In this document: positions 47,717 through 56,397 of the stretch, piece after piece
Layout of the letters: every line of letters begins with the position of its first letter
How positions within the stretch are numbered: the stretch's first letter is position 1
Source of the DNA: an uncultured Spirochaetota bacterium
GTDB taxonomy: Bacteria; Spirochaetota; Spirochaetia; SZUA-6; Fen-1364
DNA: 64,000 bases
Reading direction: 5' to 3'
Assembly: GCA_963820525.1 (NCBI GenBank)
Contig: CAWGAA010000001.1
Location: 2,432,001 to 2,496,000, forward strand
Program-made: the position numbers and the translations under genes
The notes under the pieces: model-generated
The model's database searches: none
Told to the model about the DNA's origin: nothing
The model's input: only the letters and a program-made list of their open reading frames with translations

Positions 47717-48802
47717 ATGAGGAAATATCAGCTCGTTGAATCGTGGGCAAAGAAGGCAATCTCGGACGGCAAGATCGCAGCGGGGGAAAAAATCCCTTCG
47801 GAGAGCCAGCTCTGCGCCCAATTCGGGGTGTCGCGGAACTCCGTCCGTCAGGCAATCCGCAATCTCATCCAGGAGGGATGGGTCTCCAGCATTCGCGGGG
47901 TGGGTACGTTTTGCCGTTCCCGTCTTCCTTCAACCCAGCTCACAACGAATATTGCCTTCGTGGCATTCTTCGCAAGCTCCTACATCTTTCCCGAGGTCAT
48001 CAGGGGATGCGATCACATCCTCTATACCAAGGGCTTCAACCTCATCTTGAACCAGTCCGAATACGACCTTGAAAAGGAGCGGAACATCCTCCTGGCCCTT
48101 CGAAAGAAAAGAGTGGACGGCATCATCATCGCCCCCGTGTATGACGGGAAAGACCGCTCCAACGCCAGCCTCCTGGAGGAGATTCAGGCCGAAGGCATCG
48201 CGATCGTCCTGTGCGACAGCACGTTCCTCGACAAGCGGTTCAGCTTCGTTGCCATGGACGACATCGCGGGCGGCGCGGCGGCGGCCTCGTACCTCTGGGA
48301 GAGGGGGCACAGGAAAATCGGGGTATTCTTCCAGGATGACTACCTCGTCAAGATCCGGAGGGCAGAGGGGGTTTGCGGGTTCCTCGAGCGGCAGGGAACG
48401 CCGGTCCGCTACGATTGGATCGTCAAGTTCAAGGGACAGGGCCCTTCCAGCGAAGCCTCATTCGCCGCGGAGCGCTTCCTGAAAAAGGCTCCCGATCTTC
48501 CCACGGCCGTCGTATGCTCAAGCGACGAGGACGCCCTTCAGCTCATCCAGGTGGCCGAGAAATACTCCATCCGCGTTCCCCAGGATCTCTCCGTGATCGG
48601 CTTCGACAACTCGAGCATCGCGGGGCTCCAGCGCGTCTCGCTCACCTCCGTGGACCATCCCAGCTTCTCCATGGGAGAGCTCATGACCAACATCCTGTTG
48701 GAGAGGATCTTCCACCCCGACCTGCGCTTCGTCACGCGAACGCTCATCACCCCTTCAATTGTGGAGCGGGCCTCGGTTCGCGCGCTCGAGGCCGGTTCAT
48801 AG
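47717..48802 (+). CDS. AraR-type regulator (GntR wHTH + LacI sugar-binding domain)
   Basis: IPSESQLCAQFGVSRNSVRQAI...GVGTF; VPQDLSVIGFDN, LTSVDHP. Confidence 0.9.
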   Translation: MRKYQLVESWAKKAISDGKIAAGEKIPSESQLCAQFGVSRNSVRQAIRNLIQEGWVSSIRGVGTFCRSRLPSTQLTTNIAFVAFFASSYIFPEVIRGCDHILYTKGFNLILNQSEYDLEKERNILLALRKKRVDGIIIAPVYDGKDRSNASLLEEIQAEGIAIVLCDSTFLDKRFSFVAMDDIAGGAAAASYLWERGHRKIGVFFQDDYLVKIRRAEGVCGFLERQGTPVRYDWIVKFKGQGPSSEASFAAERFLKKAPDLPTAVVCSSDEDALQLIQVAEKYSIRVPQDLSVIGFDNSSIAGLQRVSLTSVDHPSFSMGELMTNILLERIFHPDLRFVTRTLITPSIVERASVRALEAGS

Positions 48803-48839
48803 CGTCCTCCTCGTCCAGGCGCCGGGAGGGCGAAAGAGT

Positions 48840-49231
48840 TCACTTCTCGATGGGCACCCCCACCAGGTTTCCGTATTCGGTCAAGCTTCCATCGTGGTTC
48901 TCCGCCGTCTCTACTCCCAGGAGGTATTTCAGTACGAACCATGTATGGCTGGACCTCTCTCCGATACGGCAGTAGCTGACAACCGTTTTCTTCGGGTCGA
49001 TCCCGTTCGAGAGCCCTGCCCTCCCCAATCGCCCCCCGATCCTCCATGTCCTTTACCATCTGAAATGCGGCGCGGTCCTTGACGGAGCCGAAGGGATTCA
49101 GCCACTCGAGCTTCGCATAGAGCGTGAAATCCCTCTGGGTATTCAGCCGGTTGATTCGGACCATGGGACGGGTTTTCCTCGTTCGGGAGCATTTCCAGTA
49201 TGCTCTCGTAGACTCGAGCATCATGGTTCAT
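48840..49231 (-). pseudogene. Chimeric remnant: cysteine synthase N-terminus joined to rhodanese/sulfurtransferase C-terminus
   Basis: VYESILEML...|PMVRINRL...LYAKLEWLNPFGSVKDR, then in another frame [23 protein letters not shown]...[17 protein letters not shown]. Confidence 0.75.
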
Positions 49232-49275
49232 TGCTTCAATCTCACAAAGAAAGGTACTTTCGCGATGCCCCGCAG

Positions 49276-50199
49276 TCAAAACCGGGACCGGCCTCGGCAG
49301 GAGAGGGAGATTTCGGCGCCGGGTGAGAGGGAGAAAAGCTCTGCCGCGCTGCCGCGGTTCACGGCGACCTCAAGGAGTCCGTCGCTTCCGATGTACGCAA
49401 GCGGCGCCCCGAGCGGTGCCTGGGCGAACGCTGCGACAAGCGGGATGCGCGCCCCTCCGGGGAGCAGGACGTCCAGCTCCCCCGACAGCATGATGCTATC
49501 CGCGGAAGGGAGCCACGGCTCCAGAAGGAGGGCGCCCGCATCGCGGCGGAGAACGCCGATGCTGGTCACGAGGTTTCCAAAGGCGTCCACGTGGAGCACC
49601 TCGCCGCTCACGATCGGTCCCTCTCCTGCGCGGAAACGCGCCGGCTCCCCCGCGGCAGGAGCGATCTCCGATACCGGTCCCGCTTCGATGCCGGGATGGA
49701 CGGCGAGCTTCGGGTAAGGCAGGAGGGTGAGGCTTTCCACCTTCGGCCCAAGCTCCATGATGTCCGCTCCCGCGGCCAGATGGGCGGCGGCTGGCGCGAA
49801 GATGTCCCTGCCGTGGAACGTGGAGCTCACGCTGTCGCGCTGGAACGCCGGGGAGGCGATCTCGACGGCAATCCGCTCCTTCCGGCGGGCGAGCAGGAAC
49901 GTCACAAGCCCGTTGTCCGGGCCGACGAAGGTGAAATCCGGGAACCGCACGGCAACCGCTCTGCGGGAAGTTCCGACTCCAGGGTCCACCACGGCGAGCA
50001 CGACGGCTCCCGCGGGCAGGAAGGGGACCGACTGCCAGAGCGCGAAAGCCCCTGCGCGCACGTCCCCGGGGGGTACCTCGTGCGTCAGATCGATGAAGCC
50101 GACGCCGGGAGCGATCCCCGCCATCACCGCCTTCATCACCCCGACAAAGACGTCCCGCGAACCGAAATCGCTCACGAGCGCAATGACTCCCCGCCCCAT
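49276..50199 (-). CDS. SAM hydroxide adenosyltransferase / chlorinase-fluorinase family (DUF62)
   Basis: SDFG, DLTH, VVDPGVGTSRR, GPDNG, STFHGRDIFAP, DAFGNLVT, LEVAVNRG. Confidence 0.92.
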   Translation of the reverse strand: MGRGVIALVSDFGSRDVFVGVMKAVMAGIAPGVGFIDLTHEVPPGDVRAGAFALWQSVPFLPAGAVVLAVVDPGVGTSRRAVAVRFPDFTFVGPDNGLVTFLLARRKERIAVEIASPAFQRDSVSSTFHGRDIFAPAAAHLAAGADIMELGPKVESLTLLPYPKLAVHPGIEAGPVSEIAPAAGEPARFRAGEGPIVSGEVLHVDAFGNLVTSIGVLRRDAGALLLEPWLPSADSIMLSGELDVLLPGGARIPLVAAFAQAPLGAPLAYIGSDGLLEVAVNRGSAAELFSLSPGAEISLSCRGRSRF

Positions 50200-50216
50200 C
50201 CGCCCTCCCTTTCCCC

Positions 50217-50648
50217 TCATATGTCGAGCACCACGCGCGCCATCCAACCGCCGGCGGCCTGCCGGACCTTGAGAAGGTGCAGGGTCACAGCCTTGACGTC
50301 GAGCTGTAGGGTATGACGTGAGGGGTTGATTCTTTCGCCTTCAAGCTCGGCCGAAAGGCGCCAGCGGCGGCCCTCCCGCGTCAGGCGGGGCCAGGGGCAG
50401 CGGAGGAGGAGCTGCTCCGCGTCCTTGTAATAGACAATCTCCTCAAGGAGGCGGAACAGGAGCATGTCCAGCTCTTCTTCCTCTGCCGACACTGGCTTCT
50501 TCACCAACCCCTCCACAGACTCGGGTGATTCAACCATGACGCCCAGGGTCGCGTCGGCGCAGAGGCTGAAGAGGTCCTCCAGGGTTTCGGCGCGGGCTTC
50601 GAAGGCGATATCCGCGATTGCCACGTCTTCCAGGTAGCGGTACGGCAT
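50217..50648 (-). CDS. Archease
   Basis: YRYLEDVAIADIAFEA, LFRLLEEIVY, DVKAVTLH, C-terminal VVLDI. Confidence 0.9.
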   Translation of the reverse strand: MPYRYLEDVAIADIAFEARAETLEDLFSLCADATLGVMVESPESVEGLVKKPVSAEEEELDMLLFRLLEEIVYYKDAEQLLLRCPWPRLTREGRRWRLSAELEGERINPSRHTLQLDVKAVTLHLLKVRQAAGGWMARVVLDI

Positions 50649-50652
50649 CGGT

Positions 50653-51552
50653 TCAGCTCTCGCAGGCCGCAAGGCCCTCCAGGATCCTCTGCCGGGCCCC
50701 TTCCACTCCGGGGCCGATGAACACCATTTCGCTCCTCGGTGCCGTTGATTCCTCGAAATCGATGCGCCCCGCCACGTAATTGAAGACCCATTCCCCTTCC
50801 GCGAGGAAGCGGACGAAGCCCTTGGAGCGGAAGACTTCAGCGGGAAGAGATGAGAGGAAGGAGACGAATCGGGCCCTGTCGAGGGGCCTCTCGGCAGAAG
50901 CCGTGAAGGCCTGGACCTGGCGGTGGTGGCCCGGGTGGGCCTTCGGCAGGCGGCGGTCGGGATTGCGCGCACTCTGGGGCCCGAAGAGAAGCGAAAGATC
51001 CAGATCGCAACGCGTCGTTTCCACGGTCAGGGCGCCGCCCATGTGGGAAGAAACCCTCCTCCGCACGGCGGCAAGCTCTTCCCCGGTCGCGAGGTCGATC
51101 TTGTTCAGGACAACCAGATCCGCGCTTTCAAGCTGGGAGCGCTCGGCGTATCCCATGGCCGGATACCGTGTCGCCGCGTACACATCCACGATGCACACCA
51201 CGCAATCGAGACGCACGATGGGAAGGGTCTCCTCGACGGTATAGACCAGGGCATCCGCCTCCGCCACCCCCGTTGCTTCCAGCACGATCCATTCGGGACC
51301 CGCCTTTTCGACAAGCTCGCTTACCGCGGCGTTGAGCTCCCCCGCGAGAGAGCAGCAGACGCACCCGCCGGCGAGCTCCACGTAGCGAATGTTCCTCCCC
51401 TTGATCACCCGGCTGTCCACGGCCAGCTCTCCGAACTCGTTCATGACCACGGCGAGCTTGATCCCGGCGTCGGAGAGGACGCGGGAGAGAAGCGTCGTCT
51501 TTCCGCTTCCCAGGGGACCCGTGATCAGCGTGATCGGGGTCTTTTCCTTCAC
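50653..51552 (-). CDS. COG0523/CobW-family GTPase metallochaperone
   Basis: ITGPLGSGKTT, MNEFGE, GGCVCCS, EATGVA, LNKID, FRSKGFV, MVFIG. Confidence 0.92.
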   Translation of the reverse strand: MKEKTPITLITGPLGSGKTTLLSRVLSDAGIKLAVVMNEFGELAVDSRVIKGRNIRYVELAGGCVCCSLAGELNAAVSELVEKAGPEWIVLEATGVAEADALVYTVEETLPIVRLDCVVCIVDVYAATRYPAMGYAERSQLESADLVVLNKIDLATGEELAAVRRRVSSHMGGALTVETTRCDLDLSLLFGPQSARNPDRRLPKAHPGHHRQVQAFTASAERPLDRARFVSFLSSLPAEVFRSKGFVRFLAEGEWVFNYVAGRIDFEESTAPRSEMVFIGPGVEGARQRILEGLAACES

Positions 51553-51560
51553 CTGTCTCC

Positions 51561-53018
51561 TCAGCCCTTGATGTTCCCGATGGGCACGAACCTGGCGACG
51601 CGCCGGCTCAATCCCGCACGCTCGGTGGCCTCGATGACCTCGTCGATATCCTTGTAGGCTCCGCCTGCTTCCTCGGCCACCCCGGAAAGCGAGGAGCTCT
51701 TCACGTAGATGCCCCTGGCCTCCATCTCGTGAAGCAGCCGGGAGCCCTGCCAGATCCTCCTCGCCTTGGTGCGGCTCATGGTGCGGCCGCTTCCGTGGGC
51801 GGTCGTGAAGTAGCTCTGAGCCCCCGTTTCCACCCCGGCCAGCAGGTAGGATCCCGTCTCCATGCTCCCGCCGATGATCACGGGCTGACCGGTCTTTCTG
51901 TACGCCGCCGGAAGGCCGGGCATTCCCGGGGCAAACGCGCGCGTCGCTCCCTTTCTGTGCACAAGAAGCCGCCGGGAGCGCCCTCCCACCTCGTGCTCTT
52001 CCAGCTTGGCCGTGTTATGGGCGACGTCGTAGACCTGGCGGATTCCCAGGGCCCGGGGGTCCCTGTGGAACACCTCTGAGAACACCTCCCGGATCCTGTG
52101 GAGGATGACCTGCCTGTTGGCGAAAGACATGTTTATGGCGCACTTCATGGCCGAAAAGTAGTCCTGGCCTTCGGGGGAGGAGAAAGGCGCGCAGGCGAGC
52201 TCCCGATCGAGAACCTTGATGTGGAACTTTCCTTCCATTGCCTTCAGGAAGGCCTGCAGGTAATCGGTTGCAACCTGGTGGCCGAAGCCCCGGCTGCCGC
52301 AGTGAAACATGATCACGACCTGATCGTCCCGCGTTATGCCAAAGGACTCGGCGAGCTCCCGATTAATGACGTTCTCCCGCCTGGCCACCTGGATCTCCAG
52401 GTAATGGTTGCCGGAGCCAAGGGTGCCGATCTGGCGGTAGCCGCGATTGACGGCTCTCTCGCTGATCTTGGATGCGTCGGCGCCGGAGATGCACCCCCCC
52501 TCCTCCGTGGCCGCAAGGTCCTCTTCCAGTCCGTAGCCGTTTCGAATGCAGTAGCGGGCGCCCTGCTGGACAACCTGTCGGAACTCGTCTGCGCTGATGG
52601 AGAGAAATCCGTCGCGCCCGACTCCGGCGGGGATCCGCTGGAAGAGCTTGTCGACCAGCTCCCTGATGTGAGGTTGGACCTCCGCGAGGGTGAGATCCGT
52701 GGCCACGAGGCGCATCCCGCAGTTCACGTCGAACCCGATTCCGCCGGGGGAGATGACCCCTTCTTCGACGTCGAACGCCGCGACCCCACCAATGGGAAAT
52801 CCGTAGCCCCAGTGCCCATCAGGCATGCAGAAGGCGTGGCCCACGATCCCCGGCAGGCAGGCCACGTTGGAGATCTGGTCGAAAACTCCTTCGTCCATCT
52901 CCGAGACGAGCTTCTGTGAGGCATAGATGCGCGCGGGAACCCTCATCCCCTTCTTGTGGGAAGTGGGCAGCTCCCACAGAAAATCGCCGAGCTTCTTGAT
53001 GTCCGCAGGGACGGCCAT
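51561..53018 (-). CDS. rtcB: RtcB RNA 3'-phosphate/5'-OH ligase (long, archease-associated type)
   Basis: MPDGHWGYGFPIGG, GFDVNCG, GSGNHYLE, HCGSRG, HNTAK, HRKGAT, HGSGR, AEEAGGAYKD, NIKG; SD GAGGAGG. Confidence 0.95.
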   Translation of the reverse strand: MAVPADIKKLGDFLWELPTSHKKGMRVPARIYASQKLVSEMDEGVFDQISNVACLPGIVGHAFCMPDGHWGYGFPIGGVAAFDVEEGVISPGGIGFDVNCGMRLVATDLTLAEVQPHIRELVDKLFQRIPAGVGRDGFLSISADEFRQVVQQGARYCIRNGYGLEEDLAATEEGGCISGADASKISERAVNRGYRQIGTLGSGNHYLEIQVARRENVINRELAESFGITRDDQVVIMFHCGSRGFGHQVATDYLQAFLKAMEGKFHIKVLDRELACAPFSSPEGQDYFSAMKCAINMSFANRQVILHRIREVFSEVFHRDPRALGIRQVYDVAHNTAKLEEHEVGGRSRRLLVHRKGATRAFAPGMPGLPAAYRKTGQPVIIGGSMETGSYLLAGVETGAQSYFTTAHGSGRTMSRTKARRIWQGSRLLHEMEARGIYVKSSSLSGVAEEAGGAYKDIDEVIEATERAGLSRRVARFVPIGNIKG

Positions 53019-53080
53019 TGACGACCTCCTCAGGCTTGCAGTCGCCGTTTCCAACCGGTCACGGGATCCGCGCCCCGCCG

Positions 53081-53641
53081 CTACCCCGGGAACAGGCAGC
53101 AGAGCATGCGCGTCCCGAGCCTGCCCTGGACGAACGCCAGGCCGACGCAGACGGAAAACAGCACGACGTTCACCACGCTCACCCAGGCGATGAACGGGCC
53201 GATGGCGAAGATGAGGGCGGCGGCCGCGGCGGAGCAGATGAAGAATGCTATGCCCACGAAGGTCTTCGTTCTCAGATAGAGGCTCTTCGCCTTTCGGAAA
53301 CGGACGCTTCCGTCGTAGCGGCCGCTCAACCACGCAGCGGCCACGATGAGCGGCAGCGTTCCGCCGAAGGCTCTCATGGCGCCCGTCGCCGTCCGATGGA
53401 AGAGAACGGGAAAGGCAAGAATGTAGAGTGCCGTCACGAGGGCCGAGACCGTAAAGGCAACTGCGAAGTGGACGATAATAGGGTGGATGTCCAGCTGCAG
53501 GACCCGCCTTCGATTCCGGGAAACGGGGTCATTGAACGCCTCGAACATCTTTCTGGCAACTCCGCAGGCGGGACAAACGTCCTTGACCCTGTTCTCTTCA
53601 ATCACGAGACCGCAGGATTTACACCGGATCAATTGCGCCAT
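53081..53641 (-). CDS. Rubredoxin-like CxxC...CPxC domain fused to a DUF2231-like multi-TM domain
   Basis: RCKSCG...VCPACG...FE; HPIIVHF; four hydrophobic segments. Confidence 0.8.
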   Translation of the reverse strand: MAQLIRCKSCGLVIEENRVKDVCPACGVARKMFEAFNDPVSRNRRRVLQLDIHPIIVHFAVAFTVSALVTALYILAFPVLFHRTATGAMRAFGGTLPLIVAAAWLSGRYDGSVRFRKAKSLYLRTKTFVGIAFFICSAAAAALIFAIGPFIAWVSVVNVVLFSVCVGLAFVQGRLGTRMLCCLFPG

Positions 53642-53751
53642 ACTCCCCTCCTCACATTCGAATGATGAGCTATCCTACCGCGACACAAAGACCGCCGCAA
53701 GATCAAGGTCGCCGTAATGCGGCCGGCATAAGCAGCCGAAGAATTTAGGGA

Positions 53752-54198
53752 ATGGAAAAAATTCTTTCCGTCATGACCTCCTTCCTCGGAACGCTTTCGT
53801 TCGTAAAGAAAACGCCGGCGGCCCCGGAGGCAAGCGGGGAGGAGCTGCCGATCTCGCGGCACAGCCACGCCGTGGCCAGGCAATGCAGCGAGCTCGTTGC
53901 AAGCGGCATCAGGGCCGCGAGCGAGGCCGGCCGGCGTATGGCGAAGATCGAGCGCAATATCGAGCGGGCCGCCGCGCTGCTGAAAAAAACCAGGGGATCG
54001 CACCGCGACGCCGCCGCCCAGGGCCTGCGGAACATCATGGAACAGCTTGCCCCCGTCCTGAGCCTGGGCGTTTCCTCAACGGGGGAGCTCCTCGAGCTGG
54101 CCCGGGAGGCGAGCCGGCTCGACGAGGCCCCCGCCCGCCGGCGGCTCAATCCCCTTTCTTCTCCGCGGCTTTCGCCGCCTGCTCGGCCAGACCGGTGA
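53752..54198 (+). CDS. Hypothetical helical protein
   Basis: Only sizeable ORF filling the gap between two minus-strand genes; no motif; 3' end overlaps the SPFH gene. Confidence 0.35.
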   Translation: MEKILSVMTSFLGTLSFVKKTPAAPEASGEELPISRHSHAVARQCSELVASGIRAASEAGRRMAKIERNIERAAALLKKTRGSHRDAAAQGLRNIMEQLAPVLSLGVSSTGELLELAREASRLDEAPARRRLNPLSSPRLSPPARPDR

Positions 54199-55024
54199 GG
54201 GGCTTCAGGAGATTCACGAACTCCAGGGGGAAGATGAACTTGGTGGAAGGGCTTGCCCCCATCTGCTTCAGGGTATCGAAATACTGAAGCATCATCGTCT
54301 TGGAATCCACGATCTTGGCCGCGCTGAAGATCTTCTCCAGTGCAAGGGCGAATCCCTCGGCCCGAAGGATGGCAGCCTGTCGATCGCCTTCCGCCTTGAG
54401 GATCGCCGACTGCTTGTCACCCTCGGCCACCAGGATCGCCGATGCCCTCTTTCCTTCGCTTTCCGTCACCATGGCCCTGCGGTTCCTCTCCGCCGACATC
54501 TGACGGTTCATCGCGTCCTGGATGTCCTTGGGAGGCACGATCTCGCGGATTTCAACCGTGGTCACCTTGACCCCCCAGCGCTCGGTCACGTCGTCCATCT
54601 TTGTGCGAAGGATGCGGTTGATGTCCTCGCGCTTGGCCAGAACGTCGTCCAGCGGGATGTCTCCGATCACGGCGCGAAGCGTCGTGGTGGCGATTCCCTG
54701 GCTGGCCCCGGCGAAGTTGCCGACCTGGATCACGGAGGCGGTGGGCTCCACGATGCGCCAGTAGATGAGGAAGTCGATGTCGATCGGCGCGTTGTCCTTT
54801 GTGATGCAGGTCTGTCGGGGGATCTCCAGGTACAGCTCGCGAAGGTCCGTCCACACCGGCCGGTCCACGATGGGGATGAGGAAAACCAGGCCGGGACCCC
54901 GCGCCCCGATCGAGCGGCCCAGGCGGAAAACGACCAGCCGCTGATACTCCCTGACCACCTTGATGGACGCCGACAGGATGATGATGGCAAGAATCACGAT
55001 GACAGCGATGGCGACGATACTCAC
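54146..55024 (-). CDS. SPFH/band 7 (stomatin-like) protein
   Basis: VVREYQRLVVFRLGR, GPGLVFLIP, ITKDNA, WGVKVTTVEI, QMSAERNRRA; GTG start after AAAGGAGG. Confidence 0.92.
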   Translation of the reverse strand: MSIVAIAVIVILAIIILSASIKVVREYQRLVVFRLGRSIGARGPGLVFLIPIVDRPVWTDLRELYLEIPRQTCITKDNAPIDIDFLIYWRIVEPTASVIQVGNFAGASQGIATTTLRAVIGDIPLDDVLAKREDINRILRTKMDDVTERWGVKVTTVEIREIVPPKDIQDAMNRQMSAERNRRAMVTESEGKRASAILVAEGDKQSAILKAEGDRQAAILRAEGFALALEKIFSAAKIVDSKTMMLQYFDTLKQMGASPSTKFIFPLEFVNLLKPLTGLAEQAAKAAEKKGD

Positions 55025-56346
55025 GGGTGAGCCTCCTTTCGTCGAACGACAAGCCGCAATCCTTCCCTCTGGACAATCTCCACCGACTCCCCGCTCTTGA
55101 TCGCGCCCTCCGCCGAGCGGGCGCTCCACACCTCGCCGGCCGCCCGAACCTGGCCGTCCGGAGCGAGGTCCGTCAGGGCCACGCCGTCCAGCCCGGGCAG
55201 GACTTCCTCGCCGAAGGCGATCCTTCGGCCCTGGGCGGCAATCCCCTTGGAGATGACGAACATGAAGAACAGCGTCACCAGGGTTGTCATGACCCCGATG
55301 GTTATGGGAGACACGCGGATCTCCGGGGCGGATGGAAACACTGGGGCCCGCCACGGGGGAAAGAGGAGGAACGAGCCGAGGAGAAAGGAAACGATCCCCC
55401 CCGCGGTCCACACGCCGTGGGAAGGAACCTTGATGTCCACGATGAACAGCACGACGGCGAGCGCTATAAACACGAGCCCGCCCAGGTTGGTGGGGAGGCT
55501 TCCGAAGCCTACCAGGGAGAGGAGGATGGCGATGCCGCCCGCAATGCCCGGCGCCCCGATGCCCGGGGCGGAAAGCTCGAAGATGATACCGAAGATCCCG
55601 ATCACCAGAAGGACGTAGGCGAGGTCGGGGTTCACCAGCACGCTCAAGAGCCGATCCACGAGGCTCATGTCGAAGCGGCGGACATCGGAGCCGGCCGTGC
55701 GAAGCACGATCGCGCCCGCCGTCGTTCGAACCGTCTTGCCGTCAACGGCGGCGAGGAGGCCGGCAAGGTCGGGCGCTTCCAGATCAGCCACGTGCCGGCT
55801 GACGGCCTCGGTCTCCGTGAGAGACGCGCTCCTGCGCACGGCCTCATCCGCCCACGCGAGGTTCCGCCCGCGAAGCTCGGCGAGGCTTAAAAGCTGTGCT
55901 GCCGCGTCGTTGGTCACCTTCTGGCCTTCCGTGCCCGGGATGTCCGCGCCCCCGGCGGAAACGGGGTGAGCCGCACCGATATGCGTTCCGGGAGCCATGA
56001 CGGTGAGGTGGGCGGCCATGGCGATGAACACCCCGGCCGACGCCGCCCGCGCGCCCCGGGGCGACACGTAGACGGCCACGGGCACCGTCGAGGAGAGGAT
56101 CGCCTGGACGATCTGGTCCATGGAAACTGAAAGCCCTCCGGGAGTGTCGAGGGACAGGAGCAGAAGGCGTGCCCCGTCCGCCTCGGCCTGGGATACGCCG
56201 CGCGAAACGTAGCGGGCTGAAATGGGATCTATCGGCCCGGCCAGCGTGAGGACAAGAACGATCCCGCGGGGGCTCCCGCTGTTGTCGATTGCGTAGCCGG
56301 GCAGTCGAAGGGTGAGGAGGGCGAGACAGGCAATCAGCGCCTTCAT
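55021..56346 (-). CDS. nfeD: NfeD membrane-bound ClpP-class serine protease
   Basis: LDTPGG, ARAASAG, IGAAHPV, multi-TM region, C-terminal OB fold; adjacent to SPFH. Confidence 0.88.
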   Translation of the reverse strand: MKALIACLALLTLRLPGYAIDNSGSPRGIVLVLTLAGPIDPISARYVSRGVSQAEADGARLLLLSLDTPGGLSVSMDQIVQAILSSTVPVAVYVSPRGARAASAGVFIAMAAHLTVMAPGTHIGAAHPVSAGGADIPGTEGQKVTNDAAAQLLSLAELRGRNLAWADEAVRRSASLTETEAVSRHVADLEAPDLAGLLAAVDGKTVRTTAGAIVLRTAGSDVRRFDMSLVDRLLSVLVNPDLAYVLLVIGIFGIIFELSAPGIGAPGIAGGIAILLSLVGFGSLPTNLGGLVFIALAVVLFIVDIKVPSHGVWTAGGIVSFLLGSFLLFPPWRAPVFPSAPEIRVSPITIGVMTTLVTLFFMFVISKGIAAQGRRIAFGEEVLPGLDGVALTDLAPDGQVRAAGEVWSARSAEGAIKSGESVEIVQREGLRLVVRRKEAHP

Positions 56347-56397
56347 TTCTTTAGCCAAATATAGCATGGAAACGAAGGAGGCTGCCAGGGGAAATGC

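Follow-up and report, generated by a model that had tools for sequence, protein, structure and literature searches.

By comparing bacterial and archaeal genomes, we identified a conserved three-gene unit formed by the RNA ligase gene rtcB, a COG0523-family GTPase gene and the archease gene. The unit was met in a 64,000-nucleotide stretch of DNA (the window) from an uncultured Spirochaetota bacterium (assembly GCA_963820525.1, contig CAWGAA010000001.1), where it forms the core of a run of five co-oriented genes. The rtcB-archease operon and the COG0523 GTPases are each known, while the union of both was not found in the publications searched. On genomic evidence, a functional partnership of the GTPase with RtcB and archease is highly probable.

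Loci of GTPase homologues were drawn from GTDB genomes, metagenomes and whole-genome searches, and were scored against a profile of the 40 best-matching homologues of the window protein. Membership in the clade was defined by a profile hidden Markov model score of at least 290 bits and not by the neighboring genes, with the truncated locus L015 added by identity; 66 clade loci remained after the removal of nine that represented the source genome or duplicates. Flanks vary from 1.5 to 6 kb, and the loci are not independent, many coming from kin (30 from a single class) and ~60 of the controls being betaproteobacterial. Within this set rtcB is present on 57 loci, archease on 52, both on 49 and either on 60, versus neither gene on any of the 161 loci of other COG0523 proteins (best score 249 bits), so that the co-occurrence check suggested by the original prediction comes out in favor of the link. 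The canonical order rtcB-GTPase-archease, on one strand and with gaps below 600 nucleotides, is found at 44 of the 66 loci. The linkage spans several bacterial phyla and DPANN archaea, the hosts including Gemmatimonadota, Syntrophobacteraceae, Desulforhabdus, Verrucomicrobiota, Manganitrophaceae, Woesearchaeota and Micrarchaeota, and no further neighbor besides rtcB and archease is shared across phyla. In a FastTree phylogeny of 106 sequences, the linked GTPases together with their unlinked archaeal kin are split from 31 other COG0523 proteins with a support of 0.996; the branching order inside the clade is poorly resolved.

The link between the GTPase and rtcB/archease outlives gene reshuffling. 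The order is archease-rtcB-GTPase at locus L010, the partners are on the opposite strand at L253, L254 and L259, the GTPase and archease genes stand together with rtcB on a different contig at L006, and a sigma-70-like gene separates rtcB from the GTPase-archease pair at L011. A sample of 301 genomes from one archaeal phylum includes ten with a gene scoring at least 269 bits, six of which have a partner within 1.5 kb. The closest form of association is a full-length GTPase-archease fusion of 437 amino acids, first met in the representative search and known from three sequences, 88-95% identical, in NCBI and Logan assemblies; since all three belong to one lineage, they are counted as a single fusion event. 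The AlphaFold2 model of the fusion P0126 (mean predicted local distance difference test score 70 and mostly below 50 in the archease part, predicted template modeling score 0.47) is uninformative on the contact between the domains, because only 3 of the 53 alignment rows cover the archease part; a fold search with this model returned YjiA, HypB and UreG. A seeming RtcB-GTPase fusion, P0162, was discarded as a single member riddled with frameshifts. No further clade-level fusion was found among proteins of 589-2000 amino acids, which is weak evidence, and a search of viral contigs with two patterns brought up no relative.

A finer view is provided by the class of genome G065 (122 genomes, which are relatives and not independent), where 76 genomes carry an RtcB 64-76% identical to the window RtcB. 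By hand count, the clade GTPase is encoded in 42 of these 76, versus none of the 37 genomes that have only a distant RtcB type; in this class the GTPase never occurs without the matching RtcB type. When 44 RtcBs linked to the GTPase and 33 unlinked ones are placed in one tree, every linked protein falls into a single clade with a support of 0.896.

All three proteins of the window appear to be intact. The match of RtcB to PF01139 covers the full model (positions 1-426 of 426), and its residues D97, C100, H205, H239, H334 and H408 are invariant in 21 of 21 aligned cassette RtcBs. By motif context, from which the equivalence was taken, they correspond to the metal ligands Asp95, Cys98, His203, His234 and His329 and the nucleophile His404 described for P. 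horikoshii RtcB (PMC9745838). The window protein scores 114 bits against the model of PrfH-linked RtcB (cut-off 272), and is of the archease type, keeping every metal ligand as well as the catalytic His. Archease has the residues D13, K119, D142 and the terminal I143; D13 and K119 are at least 90% conserved and D142 is invariant in 24 sequences. The human counterparts D51, K156, D178 and I179 are reported to form metal site C in the complex with RTCB (PMC10944509).

The GTPase has the two-domain build of its family (cobW 145 bits, CobW_C 56 bits), and the closest solved structure is YjiA (1nij). The G1 motif, C64-x-C66-C67, E92, N150-K-x-D153 and R242-x-K244-G245 are invariant in 40 homologues, the window protein spelling the second and last of them C64-V-C66-C67 and R242-S-K244-G245. 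Among 60 linked clade GTPases, none lacks G1, the Walker-B Glu (G3), NKxD (G4) or RxKG, and 59 have CxCC, the exception being L013. Metagenomic homologues exist at 57-77% identity. The window protein stays under the NCBIfam cut-offs for CobW (110 of 332 bits), YjiA-type (97 of 361), ZigA (92 of 600) and MRF (23 of 375) proteins. The clade is marked by 30 signature positions, which include an extra conserved Cys182 and an acidic helix directly behind CxCC (E72, E74 and E79), and its linker is short and His-poor, with a median of 23 residues and 1.5 His versus 38 and 3, and with at most four His across 60 clade members. The linker and the signature positions together are candidates for a client-facing surface.

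Several published observations bear on what the GTPase might do. P. horikoshii RtcB is reported to be guanylylated best with Mn and not at all with Zn or Cu; both of these metals displace Mn at its Cys/His sites and prevent guanylylation, and in 2 mM Mn the addition of 50 uM Zn cuts its activity by half (PMC9745838). Human RTCB with archease is blocked by equimolar Zn (PMC10944509), and Zn binds RtcB at least 40-fold more tightly than Mn (PMC9745838, PMC10944509). Archease is described as docking into the RtcB active site and contributing a third Mn site (PMC10944509). For the COG0523 family, CxCC provides three thiolates of a high-affinity Zn site in ZigA and MigC, and RxKG serves as a self-activating arginine finger for GTP hydrolysis (PMC13001444); few bacterial members have a known client (PMC11672702).

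A presumably Zn-avid GTPase is thus kept next to a Mn enzyme that Zn poisons, and has in one lineage been fused to the activator of this enzyme, which argues for a role in metal occupancy. We regard it as probable that the GTPase is a dedicated accessory that would use GTP to control the metal in the RtcB-archease active site. The original prediction saw RtcB or archease as a new client of a dedicated metallochaperone; the linkage on which this view was based holds, and is strengthened by the archease fusion, whereas simple delivery becomes doubtful because the CxCC site of the family binds Zn and Zn inactivates RtcB. Our tentative first choice of role is the removal or exclusion of Zn, preferred because the GTPase would be Zn-avid, RtcB is poisoned by Zn and delivery of Zn would do harm; the second and less likely choice is that the GTPase brings in an activating metal (Co, Fe, Ni or Mn). 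Between the two in plausibility, and still speculative, is the specific proposal that the GTPase acts as a GTP-driven metal proof-reader, which would strip misbound Zn or Cu from the RtcB-archease site and insert no metal. For the removal of Zn we envisage a cycle in which the GTP-bound GTPase would meet the ligase at or through archease, take the inhibitory Zn from the Cys-bridged site of RtcB and let go of it after GTP hydrolysis, whereupon Mn could load and the ligase turn over.

A number of findings weigh against an active-site role of this kind. We know of no COG0523 protein for which the removal of Zn has been shown. No shared palindromic regulator site was found upstream of rtcB at 22 loci, in a search for AT-rich palindromes within 250 nucleotides of the gene (the promoter may lie further up), and no metal transporter recurs among the neighbor clusters of 30 loci; because of these two results, no metal is singled out by the genomic context. 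Zur-regulated low-zinc COG0523 proteins, by comparison, would be expected to have a shared upstream operator and a long His-rich linker. Six of the 66 clade loci carry neither rtcB nor archease on the fetched stretch, four of them having flanks of only 1.5 kb and one being a 1.6-kb contig. The remaining 34 of the 76 genomes with the close RtcB type in the class of G065 have no GTPase, and in 19 of 20 such genomes that were fetched rtcB is followed directly by archease; in one of the 19, L351, a 34-codon remnant of the GTPase gene lies between them. Unlinked RtcBs are nested at eight places within the linked clade of the RtcB tree (9 parsimony changes, ~8 losses of the GTPase), and no RtcB or archease residue tracks its presence. 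Fourteen relatives with a 60-73% identical RtcB have no GTPase gene adjoining it, 13 of them with archease next. The GTPase is therefore an accessory of RtcB that has been repeatedly lost from one RtcB lineage. Searches of 60 close relatives of the source genome (best 181 bits) and of 400 genomes from its phylum (best 208 bits) did not bring up the clade GTPase; for the source genome, lateral gain of the triad and its retention while the kin lost it are both possible.

Among the alternatives to Zn removal, the one that survives best is the delivery branch just named, a classical insertase that would supply apo-RtcB or the site in archease with Co, Ni, Fe or Mn. We consider it unlikely, since in ZigA and MigC the CxCC motif binds Zn with high affinity and Zn abolishes RtcB activity, and since Mn, the best metal, binds thiolates weakly. 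The metal site of archease, moreover, is all carboxylate (PMC10944509). Loading of a client has precedents in the family, namely the dedicated clients of CobW, Nha3 and ZNG1 (PMC11672702, PMC13001444), and would be consistent with the reported guanylylation of P. horikoshii RtcB at 30% of the Mn level with Co and 21% with Ni (PMC9745838), as well as with the statement that the in-vivo metal of RTCB is uncertain (PMC10944509).

A somewhat weaker alternative is a Zn- and GTP-sensing switch or shield, in which the GTPase would bind RtcB or archease and gate or protect the ligase, moving no metal. It finds a parallel in PYROXD1, which shields human RTCB and competes with archease for one RTCB surface (PMC10944509), and in the reported interaction of the COG0523 protein MigC with the ligase MurD (PMC12208494); the conserved acidic helix after CxCC could suit a basic RNA cleft. 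Fusion of the GTPase to the activator archease would, however, suit cooperation better than competition, and the lack of a metal-regulated site upstream of rtcB at the 22 loci also speaks against such a switch.

It is improbable that the GTPase is merely co-regulated with the ligase and works for a different client in the upkeep of RNA or translation, without touching RtcB. The frequent clean losses with no compensating change in RtcB or archease would fit this explanation, as would the four of the ten clade genes in the archaeal sample that have no partner within 1.5 kb. It is opposed by the fusion to archease, by a linkage kept across several gene orders and two domains of life, by the absence of any other neighbor common across phyla, and by the fact that the four archaeal genomes with an unlinked clade GTPase still encode RtcB.

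In the window, re-reading of the coordinates bears out the earlier description of five co-oriented open reading frames (ORFs), separated by 62, 8, 4 and 17 nucleotides, with the CxCC GTPase (GCVCC in this protein) placed between rtcB and archease.

Table. Genes of the triad and adjoining features on the minus strand of the window
Feature	Position	Strand	Basis of assignment
rtcB, 3'-phosphate/5'-OH RNA ligase, 485 aa (core gene 1)	51561..53018	-	PF01139, 553 bits
COG0523/G3E GTPase, 299 aa, GTG start (core gene 2)	50653..51552	-	PF02492 + PF07683
Archease, RtcB activator, 143 aa (core gene 3)	50217..50648	-	PF01951, 120 bits
Rubredoxin-like domain + DUF2231-like membrane region, 186 aa	53081..53641	-	PF21349 (RUBY_RBDX), hydrophobic C-terminal part
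DUF62 SAM hydrolase-family gene, 307 aa	49276..50199	-	PF01887 + PF20257 (SAM_HAT_N + SAM_HAT_C)
Cysteine-synthase 5' remnant, frameshifted + truncated	49033..49231	-	PALP match, 44 residues only

Shine-Dalgarno-like AG-rich stretches precede four of the five starts; the archease gene, which begins 4 nucleotides past the GTPase stop, has none. No sigma-70 consensus promoter was found within 48500-54500. The source genome (5.05 Mb, 96.7% complete) has a single RtcB, one strong and three weak matches to the cobW domain, and no match to RtcA (PF01137) or RtcR (PF06956), as the original prediction had supposed.

That prediction further made the rubredoxin-like protein a redox partner and the DUF62 protein an S-adenosylmethionine (SAM) damage-control enzyme of a stress-repair module, and neither assignment withstood the comparison. 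No rubredoxin-like or DUF62 gene occurs at any of the 66 clade loci, 19 of which extend at least 500 nucleotides upstream of rtcB and 44 at least 400 nucleotides downstream of archease. Orthologues of the rubredoxin-like gene occur in 24 of 60 relatives, and none of their 27 fetched loci carries rtcB, the GTPase or archease within 1.5 kb; an SPFH gene stands just upstream in 15 of the 24 related genomes, and in the window also lies upstream, one ORF further off. Two of four orthologues tested give a weak match to DUF2231. On the minus strand at 53081-56367 the window has an nfeD-SPFH pair with the rubredoxin-like/DUF2231-like gene, a block that recurs in its family, SPFH being on the locus in 15 of the 19 family genomes that carry the gene; the ORF between them (53752-54198, plus strand, 148 amino acids) has no family match and was not seen at matching loci of relatives.

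The DUF62 gene is present in 31 of 60 relatives, with archease, the GTPase gene or rtcB near it at none of 29 fetched loci and with cysK as the next gene at five of the 29. The protein has both SAM_HAT domains, with D72, R79/80 and H129 in the expected motifs of Asp-Arg-His, which we take to be the triad of DUF62 SAM hydrolases; it scores 235 bits against NF058624 (cut-off 350). The cysteine-synthase remnant (49231-49033), whose start is in another frame, is 62-71% identical to the cysK following DUF62 in five relatives and represents the end of a DUF62-cysK block; a more distant cysteine-synthase copy (47% over 45 amino acids) is encoded elsewhere in the source genome.

Because the outer genes have contexts of their own in relatives, the locus is best described as three abutting blocks, namely nfeD-SPFH-(ORF)-rubredoxin-like, the triad, and DUF62-cysK remnant. 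Both outer genes most likely come from separate blocks that happen to adjoin the triad in this genome, and read-through transcription across the blocks is possible. A conserved five-gene stress module, in which RtcB would be assisted by a SAM hydrolase and a redox partner of the rubredoxin type, is largely refuted and now very improbable: the short gaps, the common orientation and a similar, not unusual G+C content at third codon positions (0.79-0.83 in all five genes) speak for it, and are outweighed by the absence of both outer genes from the clade loci and of the triad genes from the relatives' loci (a comparison that excludes the genomes of the closest GTPase homologues, 57-77% identical), by the native contexts of the outer genes and by the broken cysK, which marks a junction.

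Several additional observations concern relatives of the triad proteins. In the class of G065, all 16 fetched rtcB genes flagged for a single in-frame TGA (L327-L342, genomes G469-G490) have this TGA exactly at the codon of the metal-bridging Cys (C100 of the window protein), for example at L329:2343-2345. A 7-bp hairpin with a G-starting loop follows 14 nucleotides past the TGA, with 99% of cells paired, though 57 of 500 shuffles match it; selA is present in 4 of 4 tested genomes with such a gene. These genes, located in archease-rtcB operons without the GTPase, likely encode selenocysteine forms of RtcB, of which the engineered U98 protein is the only one we found in print (PMC4150793). The archease of the archease-rtcB-GTPase locus (L010:3884-4312) is divergent, having lost both the N-terminal Asp that is otherwise conserved and the lysine of DVKA; its genome has a second, ordinary archease-rtcB pair. 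The protein encoded between rtcB and the GTPase gene in a Micrarchaeota bin (L011:4883-6001) matches sigma-70 regions 2 and 4, which is odd for an archaeon. A separate COG0523 group of ~600 amino acids (L207-L216, P0273-P0308), with a long N-terminal region without a Pfam match, has no rtcB link in the loci fetched. Finally, the RtcB upstream of one clade GTPase (G607:C6:6347-9169) lies in a 994-amino-acid frame with two split matches, probably owing to an intein.

The closest known system is the rtcB-archease operon of transfer RNA splicing (Desai et al. 2014, PMC3973293; Desai et al. 2015, PMC4604427; Gerber et al. 2024, PMC10944509), with which the locus shares an archease-type RtcB, an adjoining archease with the metal-site residues and a genome devoid of RtcA and RtcR, and from which it differs by the COG0523 GTPase placed between both genes or fused to archease; the words 'GTPase' and 'CobW' are absent from the text of PMC3973293. 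Known COG0523 proteins, including ZigA and the client pairs CobW-cobaltochelatase, Nha3-Fe nitrile hydratase, ZNG1-METAP1, ZagA-FolE and MigC-MurD, have the same two-domain build, motifs and YjiA fold. Unlike them, the clade GTPase falls far under the family cut-offs, has a short, His-poor linker and neighbors a Mn-dependent, Zn-inhibited RNA ligase instead of a Zn, Co or Fe enzyme. The E. coli RtcR-RtcBA and RtcB2-PrfH systems, as far as described in the sources consulted, likewise have an RtcB ligase as the core enzyme; they differ from the triad in that the source genome has no RtcR or RtcA and its RtcB does not reach the PrfH-linked cut-off. PYROXD1 of metazoan RTCB would be analogous as a dedicated accessory for the metal-bound active-site Cys (PMC12263435, PMC10944509), although it is a sequence-unrelated flavin oxidoreductase and the partner here is a P-loop metal-binding GTPase. 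A link between COG0523 and RtcB or archease is absent from the main texts of PMC3973293, PMC2770081 (Haas 2009) and PMC13247085 and from the first half of PMC11672702, and no publication on it was found in a search that left supplements and two likely surveys outside, so that absence from print is not established.

How RtcB obtains Mn in cells despite the tighter and inactivating binding of Zn is an open problem in the field. The triad offers a small soluble system of three proteins with an easy read-out (guanylylation and ligation), a natural fusion and close natural controls that have lost the GTPase, and allows a direct test of which way a COG0523 protein moves metal. The two genes at its flanks contribute nothing here. 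If the GTPase is indeed a proof-reader, the COG0523 family would gain a function in the reverse direction, and prokaryotic RNA ligases would gain a third component with a PYROXD1-like part, which would also serve the only RtcB found in several genomes of DPANN archaea.

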